DNA of 34,655 nucleotides from a virus (taxonomy: Duplodnaviria > Heunggongvirae > Uroviricota > Caudoviricetes). A program made the position numbers and the translations under genes. Shown one piece after another: positions 5,174 through 33,247 of this stretch. The notes under the pieces are model-generated. The model was not told where the DNA came from. It worked only from the letters and a program-made list of their open reading frames with translations, and did not search any database. Position 1 is the first letter of the stretch, and each line of letters starts with the position of its first letter. The DNA is taken from the IMG/VR virus record IMGVR_UViG_2531839666_000023. The stretch is one strand, 5' to 3'.

Positions 5174-5293
5174 GTGATCATCATGCACACACAAAAAACC
5201 GCTTGCCAGCGCTCGTCGTGTCGGGTTACATTTCCGCTGCACCTCATAAAACGGGTGCCGGGATTGCAACCCCCGCCGACTATGCACGCGCAC

Positions 5294-5314
5294 AACCGCG
5301 CCAGCGGTTTTTTT
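5294..5314 (+). terminator. Rho-independent terminator-like hairpin
   Basis: Stem AACCGC, loop GCCA, stem GCGGTT, followed by a 7-T run on the + strand. Confidence 0.45.
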
Positions 5315-5492
5315 GTGCGTACTGTATCGCCACGTCTTTTTCGCATCGAAATTATGGCGGGGCGTACGGGGCCGACTTCGGTCGGGCCGGGTTCGTGCGT
5401 AGCCGGTGGTTGCAACCCTGTACGTCTCGCCACCCAGAATTGCAACCTCTGGATGGTGAGTTTTCAAAACTTACTACGTACGAGGCCACACC

Positions 5493-5720
5493 ATGGCAAA
5501 CCGCAAACAACAGCGCGCCCGCGCTGAGCGTCTTCACATCCGCACTGAAATCAACCGCAGGCTCTGGCGCGCATCACGCGTCGCGCAAATCATGTACATC
5601 AACATGCTGCATGAACACGCACACGCGCTGTCAGACCGTTACTGTGCCGCCGTCTTCAGCTACCTGGCGGATGACCTGGCAGAGCTGCAGGACCTTATCA
5701 ACCAGCAACACCACCACTAA
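5493..5720 (+). CDS. Hypothetical protein (75 aa)
   Basis: ORF following the repeat/hairpin-rich non-coding stretch; basic N-terminus. Confidence 0.35.
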   Translation: MANRKQQRARAERLHIRTEINRRLWRASRVAQIMYINMLHEHAHALSDRYCAAVFSYLADDLAELQDLINQQHHH

Positions 5721-19233: not shown

Positions 19234-19539
19234 ATGCCGGACGGTCAGACTTCACTCCTGGCAAAACTGATTATCATCGGTGCTGCCATCGGGCTGGGGC
19301 GTCTCATGGTGAGCCGCGATCGCATCACAGCCCGTCTGCTTATCGGGCGAATGATTATGGGCTCTGCCGTGGCACCGGTTGCCGCCATTCCGCTGTTTAA
19401 ATTTCCGGACATGCCGGAGCTGGTAGTGGTCGGTCTGGCGTGCGCGCTGGGCATTATGGGCAGCGCCTTTATTGAAGAATGCTTTTGCCGTCTGGCAGAC
19501 CGCTACCTGAAGCAGAAGGAACGCAGAAATGACCCATAA
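19234..19539 (+). CDS. Holin-like membrane protein
   Basis: 101 aa with three hydrophobic segments and a charged C-terminus (RYLKQKERRNDP); sits in the lysis cassette upstream of the endolysin and spanin genes. Confidence 0.5.
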   Translation: MPDGQTSLLAKLIIIGAAIGLGRLMVSRDRITARLLIGRMIMGSAVAPVAAIPLFKFPDMPELVVVGLACALGIMGSAFIEECFCRLADRYLKQKERRNDP

Positions 19540-20281
19540 GCCTTACATTTCGCCTTCCCTGAGCCTGTATCACGCGCAGGCGCATGACGTTCTGCGGATG
19601 CTGCCGGAAAACAGTGTGGACGCGCTCATCACAGACCCGCCATACAGTTCAGGTGCCACACACAAGGCGGGGCGGACATGCCAGGGCAGCCACGCCAAAT
19701 ACATCAACGATGAAGATCTTCACCGCTTTGAAGGCTTCGAAGGCGAGAACATGGACGCCCGTTCATGGGAATACTGGACGCATCTGTGGATGACACAGGC
19801 ATGGCGCACGGTACGACCCGGTGGTTACGCCCTGGTCTTCACCGACTGGCGGCAGTTGCCCGCGCTGACGGACGCATTCCAGGCCGCCGGCTTTACCTGG
19901 CGGGGGATCGTGGCATGGAACAAGGGACGGGCCTCAAGAACACCGCATACCGGTTATTTTCGTCACCAGTGCGAATATGTGGTCTGGGGCAGTAAAGGCG
20001 CGCTGGGCAAATCCCCTTCCGGGCCGTTCGACGGCTGCATCACGCACCACACACGCCCACAGGAGAAACAGCACCCGACAGGTAAACCGGAATCGTTGAT
20101 GGATGAGCTTGTGCGCGTGTGTGAACCCGGAGGGCTGATCCTCGATCCGTTTATGGGGTCCGGCACCACGGGCGTGGCCGCCCTTCGCCGGGGCTGCCGT
20201 TTTACGGGTATTGAACTGAACGCCCACTATTTCAGCGTAGCACAGGCGCGTCTTACGGGGACGGAACAGAGGAGTGACTGA
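19529..20281 (+). CDS. DNA methyltransferase, beta-class amino-MTase, probably N6-adenine; no restriction partner seen
   Basis: DPPY catalytic motif near the N-terminus (ITDPPYSSG) and AdoMet-binding FxGxG motif near the C-terminus (LDPFMGSGTTG); motif order IV then I indicates beta class. Confidence 0.8.
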   Translation: MTHKPYISPSLSLYHAQAHDVLRMLPENSVDALITDPPYSSGATHKAGRTCQGSHAKYINDEDLHRFEGFEGENMDARSWEYWTHLWMTQAWRTVRPGGYALVFTDWRQLPALTDAFQAAGFTWRGIVAWNKGRASRTPHTGYFRHQCEYVVWGSKGALGKSPSGPFDGCITHHTRPQEKQHPTGKPESLMDELVRVCEPGGLILDPFMGSGTTGVAALRRGCRFTGIELNAHYFSVAQARLTGTEQRSD

Positions 20282-20619
20282 TGAAACTGAGCGAAAAACA
20301 ACAACTGTTTGCCGTCATGATTGCCGATCTCATCCACTGGGCACAGGAGCACGGCTATCGCCTGACCTTCGGCGAGGCATACCGCACGCCGGAGCAGGCC
20401 GCACTGAATGCGAAAAGCGGAAAAGGCATTCGCAACAGCCTTCACACGCTGCGCCTCGCGGTGGACTTCAACCTGTTCATTAACGGCAAATACCAGGCCG
20501 ACACCGACGCCTACAGGCCGCTGGGGGAATACTGGGAATCCATCGGCGGCACATGGGGCGGGCGCTTCAGCCGGGCAGACGGCAATCATTTCAGCCTTGA
20601 GCACAACGGGGTGAAATGA
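20281..20619 (+). CDS. Endolysin, peptidase M15-like (L-Ala-D-Glu endopeptidase type)
   Basis: 112 aa with zinc-ligand pattern SLHTLRLAVD and C-terminal H (GNHFSLEH); position between MTase and spanin genes. Confidence 0.65.
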   Translation: MKLSEKQQLFAVMIADLIHWAQEHGYRLTFGEAYRTPEQAALNAKSGKGIRNSLHTLRLAVDFNLFINGKYQADTDAYRPLGEYWESIGGTWGGRFSRADGNHFSLEHNGVK

Positions 20620-21002: not shown

Positions 21003-21105
21003 TTTTGATGCGGCACTGCGAACCCTCACGAGCCGCTACACCGAATGCGCCGCCAGGCATAACAGCCTGGTGGAAACCATACGAAACACGGAGAAACTGC
21101 AATGA
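20812..21105 (+). CDS. o-spanin lipoprotein (Rz1/LysC-like), overlapping the i-spanin in another frame
   Basis: Lipobox-like LMITSGC after a short hydrophobic leader; Pro-rich mature region; ORF overlaps the 3' end of the i-spanin gene. Confidence 0.5.
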   Translation: MKFTLNALFTRKPSARYSAMCALLMITSGCSTPVLKPLSVPWQENQLTECPKTLPRLAGPTGADFDAALRTLTSRYTECAARHNSLVETIRNTEKLQ

Positions 21106-21377
21106 CCACGAAGAACACCGGCACCATCATCCTGTCCGTTGCGGGCGTAACCCTGAGCTTTGAACCGAACAAAACGGCATTTAACAACCTCATCAACGAA
21201 ATCACGATGACCAACAAGGTGGCGCCGATGAGCACCTATCTTAACCGCATCGTGACACCTGCCAGCCGCGACGCACTGGCTGACCTGATTGCGCGTTATC
21301 CGGGCTGTGAGATGCAGATCGTCGAGAAGATTAACGAGGTTTACTCCCCGAAATTGGAGATTGAGTTAAAAAACTGA
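21102..21377 (+). CDS. Tail assembly chaperone, gpE-like
   Basis: 91 aa immediately upstream of the tape measure gene; ends at the slippery heptamer. Confidence 0.55.
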   Translation: MTTKNTGTIILSVAGVTLSFEPNKTAFNNLINEITMTNKVAPMSTYLNRIVTPASRDALADLIARYPGCEMQIVEKINEVYSPKLEIELKN

Positions 21378-25825: not shown

Positions 25826-27885
25826 ATGGCGAAATCTGTAATTACCAGCGCCTTTATCCGGCTCAAGGCACAGCAGGCGGCGGAAGGCACCCCCGTTGTG
25901 CTGGATGAGTTTGTTTTTGCAAACGTCCCGGACCTCAACCCGGAAACACCGGTATCCCCCGACGAAACCCTGCCACCTGAAGATCAGATTGTTCACCGCC
26001 AGGCCGTTGGCAAAACCGGCGTGGTGAATGAGAATGCCGTGGTTTATTCGGTCACCCTGGGGGCAGAGCTGGGTGATTTTGAATTTAACTGGGTGGGACT
26101 GGTCAGCAAAGCAACCAGCACGCTGGCCATGATTGTTCACGCCCCCACACAGAAAAAAATCAGAACCCACAACGGTAACGAAGGTAATGTGCTGGTCCGT
26201 TCCATGCTCATGGAGTACAGCGGTGCGAAGGAAGCCACAGGTATCACCACCCCGGCGCAGACCTGGCAGATAGACTTCACGGCACGCCTGGCGGCCATGG
26301 ACGAGCGCCAGCGCCGGGAAAACATCGATATTTACGGTAACGCTGCATTCTTTGGGGACGGCTGGCTGGTTAAAAAAGGCGAAAGATGGTCACTCTGCAA
26401 AGGGACCGGTTACGTGGAGGGATTACGCGCAGAGCTGACCGAAGACATACCGCTGACCACGCCAGACTTCCCGTCCCGTATCTGGCTGACAGTATGGTGG
26501 ACCGGTACGCTCACCAGTGAATGGACGGTGGAGCACGATATTATCATGGCCGACCCCGCCGCCACGGAAGAGATCCTGCTGGAAGCACACAGGAAGGAGG
26601 CCGCCCGGCAATATTTTTTTGCCCTTGCTGACATTGATGAAGACGGCAACGTGACTGACCTGCGCCCCAGAGGAACGCCGGAAGAACGCCGCTGGCTGGA
26701 CGCTCTGAAAAAACACGAGAAATCACGCAACCACCCGGACGCAACGCTGAAAGAAAAGGGCTTCACACAGTTAAGCAGCGCCACCACCAGTACATCAGAG
26801 ACACAGGCAGCCACGCCAAAGGCTATAAAGATCGCCATGGACAACGCCGATGGTCGGCTTGCGAAAAACCGCAATGGTGAGGACATCCCCAACAAGGAGC
26901 TGTTCCTGATCAACGTGGGCGCACCACGCGTTTATGCAAAAGACGGGTACGTGGGTGAAGCAGGGCAACGCTGGACAACAGAACAATTCGTGGAATGGCT
27001 GAATGAACGTGGCGCCTTCAGACCAGGACTCTGGATATTCAAAGCCAATATTTCACTTTCCCGGCACAGCGTGCTCACTGATACGGGCTATGGTGATATC
27101 TGCCTTGGAGGCTGCCTTATCGAAGTATCAGGCGACATCAACGGGGGGATCATCAGGATCACGACAGGTCTCGAAAGCCCAAACCCTGCCGACATGCACC
27201 TCCGCACACAGTTCACCGGGGTTGTTTTAAATAAAGGGAAAAGCACCATCTGGTACCGCACTTACACGGACAAAAACAAACCCACACCACAGGACATCGG
27301 CGCACTGCCTGCAAGTGAGTTGTTACCCGCAGGCGTTCCCCTGCCGTGGCCGTCAGACACCCCACCTGCCGGTTACGCCATCATGGTGGGGCAGACATTC
27401 GATAAAGCACGATATCCCCTGCTGGCAAAAGCCTATCCGGATGGTCGTATCCCGGATATGCGTGGCTGGACAATCAAGGGAAACCTGCCAGCGGTCGTGC
27501 GGTATTGTCACAGGAGCAGGACGGCATCAAATCGCACACCCACGGAGGGAGCGTCTCAAATACTGACCTTGGCACAAAAACGACCTCATCCTTCAATTAC
27601 GGCACAAAAACAACAAACAGCGCGGGGCCGTTCAGCGCAACAATATCATTAAGAACCGCCACCGCGTCACCGGAAGGCAGCGGTGACTGGACCGCATACG
27701 GGCCGGGCTCCGGGGCGAACCTGATCGCCAGAGTTTCGGAACACACACATTCGGTAAGCATTGGCGAACACATCCACACGCTCGCACTGGGTCAACATGG
27801 CCACGGCCTGACCATTAACCCCACCGGTAATGCGGAAAACACCGTCAAAAACATCGCATTTAACTACATCGTGAGGCTTGCATAA
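25826..27885 (+). pseudogene. Tail fibre protein (gpH-like) with reading frame interrupted near 27478-27483
   Basis: N-terminal ORF 25826-27652 and overlapping C-terminal ORF in another frame to 27885; the fibre-like sequence ([22 protein letters not shown]...[15 protein letters not shown]) continues in the second frame from the GGGAAA tract; its stop overlaps the tail-fibre-assembly start (TAATG). Confidence 0.7.
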
Positions 27886-28481
27886 TGACCTTTAAAATGA
27901 GCGAACACCCACAGACAATTAAAATCTACAACCTGTCAGCCGGAACAAATGAATTTATCGGCGAAGGCGATGCCTGGATCCCTCCGCATACCGGACTGCC
28001 TGCGCACTCAACGGACATTGCCCCGCCTGACATTCCTGAAGGACACGTGGCTATCTTTGATGAGGATGAAAACGCCTGGCACCTCATGGAAGATCACCGG
28101 GGTAAAGCCGTCTGGCGTCTGGAGTCGGGGAGCGCCTTACTGATTACTGAGCCGGGCCCGTTACCGGAAAACGTGACAGAAATAAAACCGGACGGGGAGT
28201 TCTGCCGGTGGGATGGTTCATCATGGGTTAAGGATGAAGCAGCAGAACAGGCTTACCGGGTGAGCGAGGCGGAGAACAAAAAACGGGAATTAATACAGGA
28301 AGCAACAAATACAATAAACATCCTCCAGGATGCCGTGGATTTAAATATGGCGACCGACGATGAAAGCGCCCTGCTTCCCCTGTGGAAAAAATACCGGGTA
28401 TTACTGAACCGGACAGACACGGGCAACGCGCCGGATATTGTCTGGCCTGAATCCCCTTCGCCGGATCATCACGCAGGCTGA
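27885..28481 (+). CDS. Tail fibre assembly protein, gpG/Tfa-like
   Basis: 198 aa directly downstream of and coupled to the fibre gene. Confidence 0.7.
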
Positions 28482-28492
28482 CCGGAGGCACC

Positions 28493-29218
28493 ATGACGTG
28501 GACAAGAAAAACAATCAGCGTCAGCGCTGACATGCCCCCGCTGAGCTGTTCCGTCATCCCCGTCACACCGTGGACTTACGGGCTGGGACGATATGAAGAA
28601 TCGGGGGTATATTTAAGCCCTCCGAACGCCATAAACTGGCTGGCCGGGAAAATGGCCGGAAGCCGTGCATCCGGCGACGTGACCATTATCATGATTGCCG
28701 AAAACACCCACGATCTTTTTATACAGTCAATGGCGGCACTGACCACCGTTCTGCCCGTGCCGGTATTCACGCAGGCACAGCGCATGGCACAGGCTGCCGC
28801 CAGTCTGAGCACTGACAAAATGCAAATCCCGATCACCACCGACACCCTGCCCGCACCTGTGCATCTTTCCGTTTCCACAATACGCAGCGCAGTCAGTGCC
28901 GCCCGTGCAGCACAGGCCAGGCAGCTGGCAGCACAACGCCCGGATGCCGCAGGGCTTCGCCGCCAGATAAGCCGCTTTATCAGCAGACGGGCTGGCGCAC
29001 TTGCCGGACTGGAAGAGGGGATCAGAACACTGGCAGAACAGAAGGCGCAGGCCTGGGTATTTCAGTACCGGGGGTATCACCGCGCCGCAGCGGCGGCCAT
29101 GGTGAAGGATATCCCGGCACCGACCGCCGTACATACTGTGGCCGCACTCCTGGCGGCAGACTCATTAACCGAACTGGGGAAAATGATCCATGAGCCAGAC
29201 CGCACTGCTCGCCCTTGA
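28493..29218 (+). CDS. Hypothetical protein (241 aa) after the tail fibre assembly gene
   Basis: ORF with Ala/Arg-rich helical C-terminal half; no motif recognised. Confidence 0.35.
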   Translation: MTWTRKTISVSADMPPLSCSVIPVTPWTYGLGRYEESGVYLSPPNAINWLAGKMAGSRASGDVTIIMIAENTHDLFIQSMAALTTVLPVPVFTQAQRMAQAAASLSTDKMQIPITTDTLPAPVHLSVSTIRSAVSAARAAQARQLAAQRPDAAGLRRQISRFISRRAGALAGLEEGIRTLAEQKAQAWVFQYRGYHRAAAAAMVKDIPAPTAVHTVAALLAADSLTELGKMIHEPDRTARP

Positions 29219-29732
29219 TGGTGAGGGTATTTTCATGCAGAACATGGTGATTTCGCCCTCGATGCAGTTCCAGGAAAAGGACCAGTCCGGTCAGACATCG
29301 AGCACCGCGAACGCCGAGCAGGGCATCAAGGCCAAAGAGCTTCGCGTAACCGGGATGATCACCTTTGACAATGAGCGGGCCCTTCAGCGCATTTTCCAGC
29401 TGGCCTCTGCCACCACCGGGGACGGTGCCCTGAAAGTTTACCGTATCGCAAACGCCACCGCTGCCGCCATTAACTTTCGTGAAGGGACATTTTCCGGGCA
29501 GATAGACGCACAGCAGCAGACCGACCGCCTCGCCTGGCAGGTCAGCTTCACATTACGCGAAAGACGAAGCGTACCGGAAAAACGCCAGGCACGCGCCACC
29601 CCCGGCAGCAGCCGTAAACAGACGCCGCAGACGCCCGGCGCAAAAGGCAAAACCGTGGCCAACGAAACACCGGAGAAAATGACCTGGTTCGAAGAAAAGG
29701 TCCTCAAACCCGTCAATGATGCGCTGGAGTAA
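29190..29732 (+). CDS. Hypothetical protein (180 aa or shorter from internal ATG at 29235)
   Basis: ORF overlapping the previous gene end; alternative start at 29235 has a GGTGAGGG RBS; function unknown. Confidence 0.35.
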   Translation: MSQTALLALDGEGIFMQNMVISPSMQFQEKDQSGQTSSTANAEQGIKAKELRVTGMITFDNERALQRIFQLASATTGDGALKVYRIANATAAAINFREGTFSGQIDAQQQTDRLAWQVSFTLRERRSVPEKRQARATPGSSRKQTPQTPGAKGKTVANETPEKMTWFEEKVLKPVNDALE

Positions 29733-29734
29733 CC

Positions 29735-31408
29735 ATGAACCCCACTAAACGTCTGTTACTGGGTAACGACACCATTCAGCTGGTCAGCTGTTCCGTCATG
29801 CTTGAGCTGAACGCGTGCGGACGCGGATTTATCACGGCCAGAACGGAGCAGAACTACACCGGGCGCCCTGTTCGTCTCGATATCGGATACGGAAACGACC
29901 TGGTGCGCTGGTTTACCGGATACGTTGAACGCAGCCAGCCCGCTGAAAACGGCTCGGTGCGGCTTCTGATTCGTGAAATGGCGGGGATCCTTGATCACCC
30001 CTTCCCCTGTTCATTTCAGCACCCGACAATGCGCACGGTCACACAGTGGCTGAGTGAGACCAGCGGGCTGGAAATCATCCTGCCGGACAACGCGGCTTAC
30101 ACTGACAGACCCGTTCCGCATTTCACGCACAGCGGCACGGGCTACGAACTGCTGGCCAGTCTGGGGCGTATTTTCTCCGTACCGGACTACATCTGGCATC
30201 CGTTACCGGACGGCGGCATTATGGCCGCTGCCGCCGCGCAGGGGATGTTTTCCGGTCGCCCCGTCACCATCCCGCACGAGTTCAGCCAGGCATCAACGGG
30301 CGGACACAGTATGACCCTCCCGATGATTCAGACGCTGCGACCGGGTGTGGAGGTGAACGGTCAGCGCCTGACGATGGTCATGCTGGAAGATGACAACATG
30401 ACCATCACGTGGACACCACGCAATAAAGCCACCGGCGCCCCCCTCCAGAAGTCCCCTTTCCGTCGCCAGGCTGAAAAGGCCTTCCCTGAACTGGCATCAG
30501 GGCTTCACCTGCCCAAACTGGCACGTGTTGAGGCGCCGACCGAAGCCGTCAGCGCGGGCAATATTGCCGACCCGTTCAGACCCCGCTACGCGGTGAGTCT
30601 CCAGCTGCTTGACGAGAACGGCAACCCGGCAGCGGATACGCCCGTTTATAACGCCGTTCCCCTCCCCGTTCCTATGGCGGGCAGTGAGTCCGGCATGTTC
30701 CAGTTCCCGCCACCCGGAACCCTGGTGGAAGTGGGATTTGTGGAAGGCCGGGCGGATAAGCCCTTCATCCGCCAGATAATGGCAGAGGGCCACAATCTGC
30801 CCGACGTGAAGCCGGGCGAGCAGTTGCAGCAACAGCGCGACGGCGTATCGCAGCGCGTGACGGTCGCCGGAGACTGGGAGCGCCAGACAGACCAGCGGAT
30901 ACAGGAGACATCACGCGAGCGCGTGGTGAGCGCAGACGAGGAGACGCGGAGCCTGACCAGCCGGGAGACCACCATACAGGCAACCGACACAACCACCGTC
31001 CTGGGCGTATCCACGCTTCAGGCTGGCGCAGTCACCCATATCACTGAAGAGAACTACAGCATCAGCACGGGCGGGCACATGATGGTGGTTGCCGGTACCT
31101 GTGAGCGCGACGTGGAAGGCGACACACTGGACACCGTGGGCGGCAGCCTTACCGAAAAGATTAAGGGCGTCCGTCACAGTATTGCGCTGGCGCAGAAGCT
31201 GGTTGGCGATACGGTGAAGCTGGGAAACGAGGACATTAATGTACTGACCATGCTGACGGACCTTGCCGATGTGGTGGAAGAGCTGGCCGATATTACGGCA
31301 TCACATACCCACCCCAAAACGGGCACGTCTCCGCAGGCCGCACAGTTCAGCCAGGTCGCTCAGGAGTGCCGCCAGCTTAAAAATAAATATTCACCAATAA
31401 TCGAATAA
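29735..31408 (+). CDS. Putative baseplate spike/hub protein (gpV-like OB-fold and beta-helix-like C-terminal region)
   Basis: 557 aa; central segment GMFQFPPPGTLVEVGFVEGRADKPFI resembles the gpV OB-fold signature; C-terminal repetitive beta-strand-like segments; the last ORF of the prophage. Confidence 0.4.
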   Translation: MNPTKRLLLGNDTIQLVSCSVMLELNACGRGFITARTEQNYTGRPVRLDIGYGNDLVRWFTGYVERSQPAENGSVRLLIREMAGILDHPFPCSFQHPTMRTVTQWLSETSGLEIILPDNAAYTDRPVPHFTHSGTGYELLASLGRIFSVPDYIWHPLPDGGIMAAAAAQGMFSGRPVTIPHEFSQASTGGHSMTLPMIQTLRPGVEVNGQRLTMVMLEDDNMTITWTPRNKATGAPLQKSPFRRQAEKAFPELASGLHLPKLARVEAPTEAVSAGNIADPFRPRYAVSLQLLDENGNPAADTPVYNAVPLPVPMAGSESGMFQFPPPGTLVEVGFVEGRADKPFIRQIMAEGHNLPDVKPGEQLQQQRDGVSQRVTVAGDWERQTDQRIQETSRERVVSADEETRSLTSRETTIQATDTTTVLGVSTLQAGAVTHITEENYSISTGGHMMVVAGTCERDVEGDTLDTVGGSLTEKIKGVRHSIALAQKLVGDTVKLGNEDINVLTMLTDLADVVEELADITASHTHPKTGTSPQAAQFSQVAQECRQLKNKYSPIIE

Positions 31409-32099: not shown

Positions 32100-32260
32100 A
32101 GGTAAATTACGCGCGGGTGCCTTTCGGCTGACGGCTGGAAGGAATACCTGAAGGCCGGATGTGAAAAGGCCCCGAGTCAACTAACGTTAACCCGAGGCCC
32201 TGACACTTCCTACCTGACAAGTGGAAGGTTAGCGCCTCCCTGTAAAAGGAGTCAAGCGCT

Positions 32261-32401
32261 ATGCCGCAAAAAACGATCATAGTGAGCATTTTATGCATAA
32301 CTATTTTGATGATTGTCTGGATGATACACAAGTCACCGTGTGAGTTCAGGCTTAACATCATGTGGTCACAATTTGCGGCGTTCTTGCAGTGTAAACAGTA
32401 A
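32261..32401 (+). CDS. Hok/Gef-family type I toxin peptide (46 aa), copy 1
   Basis: Hand translation MPQKTIIVSILCITILMIVWMIHKSPCEFRLNIMWSQFAAFLQCKQ; hydrophobic N-terminal helix plus KSxCExR...AAF signature as recalled for Hok-family toxins; below ORF-track cutoff. Confidence 0.65.
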   Translation: MPQKTIIVSILCITILMIVWMIHKSPCEFRLNIMWSQFAAFLQCKQ

Positions 32402-32491
32402 GAAACCGCAGCGGGGGTGAAAGCCCCCGCTATCCGGTTGCCGGGTTCGGTCGATATGGCACCCTTTCTCCGTTGGATTACAGACGTATTT

Positions 32492-32514: not shown

Positions 32515-32982
32515 GTTCAGTTGTATTTATTGTGGTCGTTACTGGCAGTGGTATTAACTGATTTTGCATGAATAGCACAAATTTTTTCCACGATAACACC
32601 ACACGCTTCAAGATCTTCCGAGCGTGAAACCTTTATTTTTGTAATAGTCTCAGGATTATCAGCCGTTCCACTTTGCACAACCTCAATTTCAATTTTTTTC
32701 TTGAAAGAATCATTTTCATCGCCCCGACACAGGACAGAGTAAGCCTGTGCGAAAGAATATCACCAGTGCGATAGCGTTGTCTGCTTCAACGCCAGGCATT
32801 GCGCACACAAAGGGAAATCAGTACATTACACGCGGGTGCCTTTCGGCTGACGGCTGGAAGGATTACCTGAAGGCCGGATGTGGAAAGGCCCCGAGTAAAA
32901 CATTTGTTTAACCCGAGGCCTAACCCTTCCTACCCTAGACAAGTGGAAGGTTAGCGTCTCCCTGTAAAAGGAGTCAAGCGCT

Positions 32983-33123
32983 ATGCCGCAAAAAACGATC
33001 ATCGTGAGCATTTTATGCTTAACCATGTTGTTGACCGTCTGGATGATACACCGTTCTCCGTGTGAGTTCAGACTTAACATCATGTGGTCAGAATTTGCGG
33101 CGTTCTTGCAGTGTAAACCGTAA
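32983..33123 (+). CDS. Hok/Gef-family type I toxin peptide (46 aa), copy 2
   Basis: Hand translation MPQKTIIVSILCLTMLLTVWMIHRSPCEFRLNIMWSEFAAFLQCKP; same architecture as copy 1. Confidence 0.65.
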   Translation: MPQKTIIVSILCLTMLLTVWMIHRSPCEFRLNIMWSEFAAFLQCKP

Positions 33124-33216
33124 GAAACCGCAGCGGGGGTGAAAGCCCCCGCTATCCGGTTGCCAAAGGTTCGGTCGAAAGTCGCACCCTCACACAAAAG
33201 TCACAAAGAAAAACAA

Positions 33217-33247
33217 AGCCCGCAGCGTAAAAACTGCGGGCTTTTTT
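33217..33247 (+). terminator. Rho-independent terminator after hok-like copy 2
   Basis: AGCCCGCAG-CGTAAAAA-CTGCGGGCT hairpin followed by TTTTTT. Confidence 0.7.

Follow-up and report, generated by a model that had tools for sequence, protein, structure and literature searches.

The window, by which we mean the whole 34,655-nt stretch of DNA analyzed here, is a prophage located between dmsA and serS in Escherichia coli. Its P2-type genes encode an integrase, Cox, a replication endonuclease, Ogr, and the portal, terminase, scaffold, and capsid proteins, and a tail and baseplate module comes after them. The tail-fiber gene and the tail-fiber assembly gene (tfa) sit amid the baseplate genes, with baseplate J and a gpI-like gene upstream and with genes for a 241-aa hypothetical protein, an HP1_ORF34-like "baseplate complex protein," and a 557-aa hypothetical protein (no Pfam hit) downstream of tfa, at 28493 to 31408. 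Such a gene order is not the usual one where the head module of a prophage is of the P2 type. Several further features were observed elsewhere in the prophage. A DNA methyltransferase gene (19529 to 20281) lies inside the lysis cassette, between the holin gene (19234 to 19539) and an M15 peptidase gene (20281 to 20619), with both ends overlapping its neighbors. Rfam searches placed isrK at 5239 to 5314 (56.8 bits) and a C4 antisense RNA at 5350 to 5437 (78 bits), just upstream of an ORF for a 75-aa "derepression protein" (5493 to 5717); together, these form an antisense-RNA and antirepressor arrangement like that of P1/P7 immI inside a P2-like prophage. Indels in the prophage are densest around 5239 to 5437. 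Next to serS are two segments, 32102 to 32465 and 32821 to 33189, each of which matches the counterpart of the other in related prophages with ~90% identity. In the relatives, toxin genes of the Hok/Gef family are annotated at these segments, and the hok copy number varies (two or three genes).

The fiber ORF follows its native frame through codon 552 (GGA, 27479 to 27481) and leaves it at a GGGAAA tract (Table 1). The initial annotation had described the sequence after this point as an arginine-rich, low-complexity tail. The tail, which ends in QQYH, is indeed out of frame, but "low complexity" overstates its composition, with 7 Arg among the 56 residues and equal counts of Ala and Gln. The -1 frame is bounded by a TAA at 27403 and by a second TAA at 27883 to 27885, and this second stop overlaps the ATG of the 198-aa tail-fiber assembly gene (TAATG, 27885), as had been claimed. 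When one A was inserted at the tract, the window yielded a 2061-nt ORF of 686 codons with 0 internal stops. The product of the assembly gene is 100% identical to WP_000143163.1, and a GAGG lies 8 nt upstream of its ATG.

Table 1. Features at the tail-fiber locus, in window coordinates.
Feature	Coordinates	Strand	Basis or remark
Truncated tail-fiber ORF, 608 aa	25826..27652	+	Residues 1-552 native, 553-608 out of frame
Open stretch in the -1 frame	27406..27885	+	Native residues 553-686 encoded from 27481
1-nt deletion site, reads GGGAAA	27478..27483	+	Alignment to intact alleles
G_GGA_AAC, X_XXY_YYZ heptamer	27478..27484	+	In phase with the ORF from 25826
Out-of-frame tail, 56 codons plus TAA stop (27650-27652)	27482..27652	+	
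Tail-fiber assembly chaperone, PF02413, related to Mu gpU (5YVQ_B)	27885..28481	+	Intact

Separate translation of the C-terminal fragment was considered and rejected. The fragment lacks an ATG and could first be initiated at a TTG (27505), which is not preceded by a Shine-Dalgarno-like sequence, and the Logan gene caller did not predict it. On its own, such a fragment would also be without the N-terminal attachment domain and would not be expected to join the baseplate.

We compared the fiber gene and tfa (25826 to 28481; 2656 nt) with 5,426 complete E. coli genomes by megablast. Near-full-length matches were found in 12 genomes; at 2657 or 2663 nt, each was longer than the query (2656 nt), and in 12 of 12 the fiber gene is one ORF with 686 or 688 codons (2061 or 2067 nt) and no internal stop. 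A metagenome scan that accepted either A3 or A4 at the tract returned one contig, which carries an intact A4 allele with an uninterrupted fiber ORF; a second occurrence of the deletion was not found in that scan. All 13 of these homologues have one base more than the window and a single ORF, which bears out the proposal of the initial annotation that one nucleotide was lost from the fiber gene at the GGGAAA tract and that this loss split it. The junction reads AAG GGA AAA CCT (GGGAAAA) in 8 to 9 of the genomes and in the metagenome contig, AAG GGG AAA CCC (GGGGAAA) in 4 genomes, and AAG GGA AAC CT in the window, and the two intact versions both encode Gly552-Lys553. In an alignment of eight sequences of the gene, the sole gap was one column at window position 27481 (1 nt, not divisible by 3). 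Because the nearest alleles read GGGAAAA, we take the lost base to be an A from an A4 run. H458Y is the one substitution that separates the repaired window gene from the allele of strain JNEC-KY171, and the 405 nt that follow the break match, with 100% identity, the C-terminal part that this allele carries in frame; the agreement between the -1 frame and the fiber is therefore not due to chance, and this frame is the continuation of the fiber gene, as had been suggested. A megablast search of a phage collection found no full-length relative, and in that collection the 3' end of the fiber gene together with tfa matched lambdoid phages at 73 to 78%.

The intact alleles are not always annotated as such. 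In 9 of the 12 genomes, RefSeq/PGAP annotates the uninterrupted 686- or 688-codon fiber ORF as two "incomplete" pseudogene pieces, corresponding to residues 1 to 328 and 501 to the end, although translation shows no internal stop. This two-piece annotation is probably an artifact of the mosaic nature of the protein. Given these calls, the intactness of the fiber must be judged from sequence and not from annotation.

The domain composition of the fiber indicates which part is affected by the break. Pfam places PF12571 at the N terminus (residues 3 to 157), a PF03406 fiber repeat at residues 307 to 348, and a PF07484 collar at residues 503 to 550. All three domains are upstream of the break, which falls two residues past the collar, and the separate 126-aa ORF of the -1 frame had no family match in Pfam. 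Among solved structures, the middle of the fiber matched Mu gpS (8JU3 and 5YVQ), and residues 500 to 686 of the intact allele matched the receptor-binding tip of T4 gp37 (PDB code 2XGF; E = 1.6e-58). In gp37, this region forms a six-stranded needle and a head, and the putative receptor-binding site is in the head (PMC9659904). The alignment with 2XGF is unbroken over the junction, PDMRGQTIKGKP-SGRAVLS (T4), with the T4 junction reading IKGKP-SGRAVLS. Since T4 gp37 aligns straight across it, the structural match also supports one gene that has been split. All four His-x-His motifs of the fiber (HTH, HTH, HIH, and HGH, at residues 573 to 663 of the repaired protein) are downstream of the break. 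In the window, the collar (PF07484), the needle and C-terminal strands, and the PF02413 gene at 27885 are all present, with the parts split between two frames. As predicted from the sequence, the product of the window would keep the attachment domain, the shaft, and the collar but would lose the T4 gp37-like needle and head. Such a truncated fiber would be expected neither to fold with the Tfa chaperone nor to bind a receptor.

The initial annotation had also raised the possibility of a decaying prophage, and this we reject. The JNEC-KY171 prophage is 99.1% identical to the window over 30 kb, and between 5440 and 32180 the sole indel separating the two is at 27481. Across the late-gene region (5745 to 31453), comparison with four relatives likewise gave 27481 as the sole indel, setting aside gaps that compensate one another, in pairs or triplets, within divergent stretches, and no other coding indel occurs in about 27 kb of prophage. 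The comparison covered 43 other prophage proteins, all of them full length, with no frame breaks and with 61 to 100% identity (all but one at least 95%), so the prophage is not generally decayed. Of the causes originally put forward for the split, sequencing error and an inactivating mutation both stand.

Collectively, these comparisons identify the fiber split as a nonprogrammed loss of a single base. On balance, we favor the reading that the window carries a private and very recent loss of one A from the fiber gene, present as a real mutation in the DNA that was sequenced. The 608-aa truncated protein is in the NCBI databases (WP_001371289.1 / EII22486.1), and the same protein was found on one Logan contig (run SRR063742), which shares 7.8 kb of identical sequence with the window. 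The truncated allele is thus on 1 contig, compared with 532 contigs carrying the intact 686-aa allele. A serious competitor, which we regard as a little less than an even prospect, is that the strain really carries GGGAAAA and an intact 686-codon fiber and that the consensus is short of one A because of an undercall. The truncated allele is a singleton from one sample, and what sets it apart from the intact one is one base of a mononucleotide run, where a homopolymer undercall would look identical. Except for one substitution, the repaired gene is the intact allele, and there is no decay after the break, which fits an artifact as well as it fits a very recent mutation. The SRR063742 accession is an early one, from a time when platforms prone to homopolymer errors were in common use, and we counted this in favor of a miscall. 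Against it, a run of 4 nt is short for a miscall at the consensus level, and the plus-strand prophage genes contain 300 other runs of at least 4 nt, all of them in frame. Two different assemblies both give A3, although they probably derive from the same reads. When we checked for homopolymer undercalls elsewhere, the window was found to be one base short at two noncoding runs, at 5193 (A6 versus A7 in 4 of 4 relatives) and at 32693 (T7 versus T8 in three), as an undercalling consensus would predict. At 33242, however, it has an expansion (T6 versus T5), so noncoding run lengths differ in both directions, and such runs vary naturally; all three positions are in the divergent hok/sok and immunity segments. 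Assemblies alone do not separate a mutation from a homopolymer miscall.

The remaining explanations involve the ribosome or the tract. The deletion left a heptamer that conforms to X_XXY_YYZ in the correct phase (Table 1), with the native C terminus in the -1 frame. Slippage by -1 at 27478 to 27484 would yield the junction peptide GWTIKGNPASGR and would restore the native C terminus with a K553N change, and some IS elements probably use G_GG.A_AA.C (PMC4066793). One version of this explanation is that occasional -1 slippage gives some K553N fiber and that the prophage stays weakly infectious. Translational frameshifting would then buffer a frameshift mutation, making this a self-rescuing indel, but we consider it very improbable. 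Even less credit, if only slightly, is due to a programmed or rescuing -1 ribosomal frameshift by which the 608-aa form and a full-length 686-aa (K553N) fiber are both made. The two-frame layout is found in 0 of 13 homologues, and the heptamer is not conserved synonymously, the intact alleles reading GGA AAA or GGG AAA. For the 96 nt downstream of the heptamer, the folding energy is -27.6 kcal/mol (z = -0.87), a value reached by 39 of 200 shuffled sequences; Rfam gave no family match in this downstream sequence. In E. coli, moreover, G_GG.A_AA.C has low efficiency, with the best motifs reaching ~0.3% without a stimulator (Sharma et al. 2014, PMC4066793). In-frame heptamers of the X_XXY_YYZ type are common in this prophage, with 22 in 6795 codons, including a second GGGAAAC at 31222. 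The G_GGA_AAC heptamer in the fiber gene is a by-product of the deletion (G_GGA_AAA to G_GGA_AAC).

Elsewhere in the window, we observed what is likely its genuine recoding site. A 91-aa tail assembly chaperone ORF (21102 to 21377) ends in TTA AAA AAC TGA, with an in-phase A_AAA_AAC heptamer at 21368 to 21374, one codon before the stop. A DUF6890 ORF, just upstream of the tape measure gene, occupies the -1 frame, which is open between 21365 and 21562. This site looks like a conserved programmed -1 frameshift of the G/GT type (P2 E/E+E').

The weakest explanation is a phase-variable switch, in which the tract would act as a contingency locus and reversible slippage would turn the fiber on and off: the frame change does sit in adjacent G and A runs, but high slippage rates at contingency loci need much longer runs than the 3 and 3 to 4 nt present here, and the single out-of-frame allele contrasts with a fiber that is in frame at 13 of 13 homologous loci and intact on 532 contigs, which makes such a switch scarcely credible. 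On the same grounds (runs of 3 to 4 nt and 1 truncated contig against 532 intact), the slippage-prone tract suggested by the initial annotation was not upheld.

Returning to the loss of one A as a real mutation, we propose the following sequence of events. In a P2-like prophage that is otherwise intact, the A4 run in AAG GGA AAA CCT would have lost one A to give AAG GGA AAC CT, for which replication slippage in a short mononucleotide run would be the simplest source. Translation of this allele exits the native frame after Gly552, just beyond the collar, and reaches a stop 56 codons on. The truncated product would keep its baseplate-attaching N terminus and its shaft, and the needle and head missing from its C terminus would be the receptor-binding part and the expected target of the Tfa chaperone. 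With this tip lost, particles produced upon induction would be without fibers or unable to adsorb.

If the deletion is real, the prophage has complete head, tail, lysis, and replication genes but no receptor-binding tip, and its induction would probably end in host lysis with no infectious particles released. This would be a textbook first step of prophage domestication, parallel to the stf lesion of lambda PaPa. If the deletion is an artifact, then the 608-aa RefSeq protein WP_001371289.1 is a spurious entry. Beyond annotation hygiene, the significance of the split is small; it is an ordinary one, and the truncated protein is already in public databases.

The locus can be compared with three kinds of known system. 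Like lambda G/GT and P2 E/E+E', the fiber site has an in-phase X_XXY_YYZ heptamer with a continuation in the -1 frame. Unlike those systems, its two-frame layout is unique to one sequence and unconserved, with no evident stimulator. The fiber tip resembles that of T4 gp37 (2XGF), with residues 500 to 686 of the intact fiber aligning to the collar, the His-x-His needle, and the C-terminal strands of gp37, of which the very end is conserved. Receptor-binding proteins of the lambda and T4 types share a module of ~215 aa with a variable specificity insert (PMC9659904). In contrast to T4 gp37, the window fiber has a central head segment (residues ~603 to 636) that is shorter and unrelated in sequence, and its N-terminal two-thirds are of the P2/Mu type (PF12571; Mu gpS, 8JU3 and 5YVQ). 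The chaperone of the fiber is of the lambda/Mu Tfa type (PF02413).

The closest parallel is the stf gene of lambda PaPa (orf401/orf314), as compared with the intact stf of Ur-lambda. [quoted passage not shown] In both cases, a frameshift splits a fiber gene with a T4 gp37-like C terminus just upstream of tfa, and the 3' end of the window fiber gene together with tfa matches lambdoid stf/tfa DNA at ~73%. Unlike the lambda stf lesion, the window allele is known from one sample and is a probable rather than an established feature of the DNA. The two lesions would also differ in their consequences. The side fibers of lambda are accessory, adsorption being mediated by gpJ, and the lambda mutant was viable and became the laboratory strain; the window fiber, encoded within a baseplate module in a prophage with a P2-like head module, is instead probably the main adhesin.
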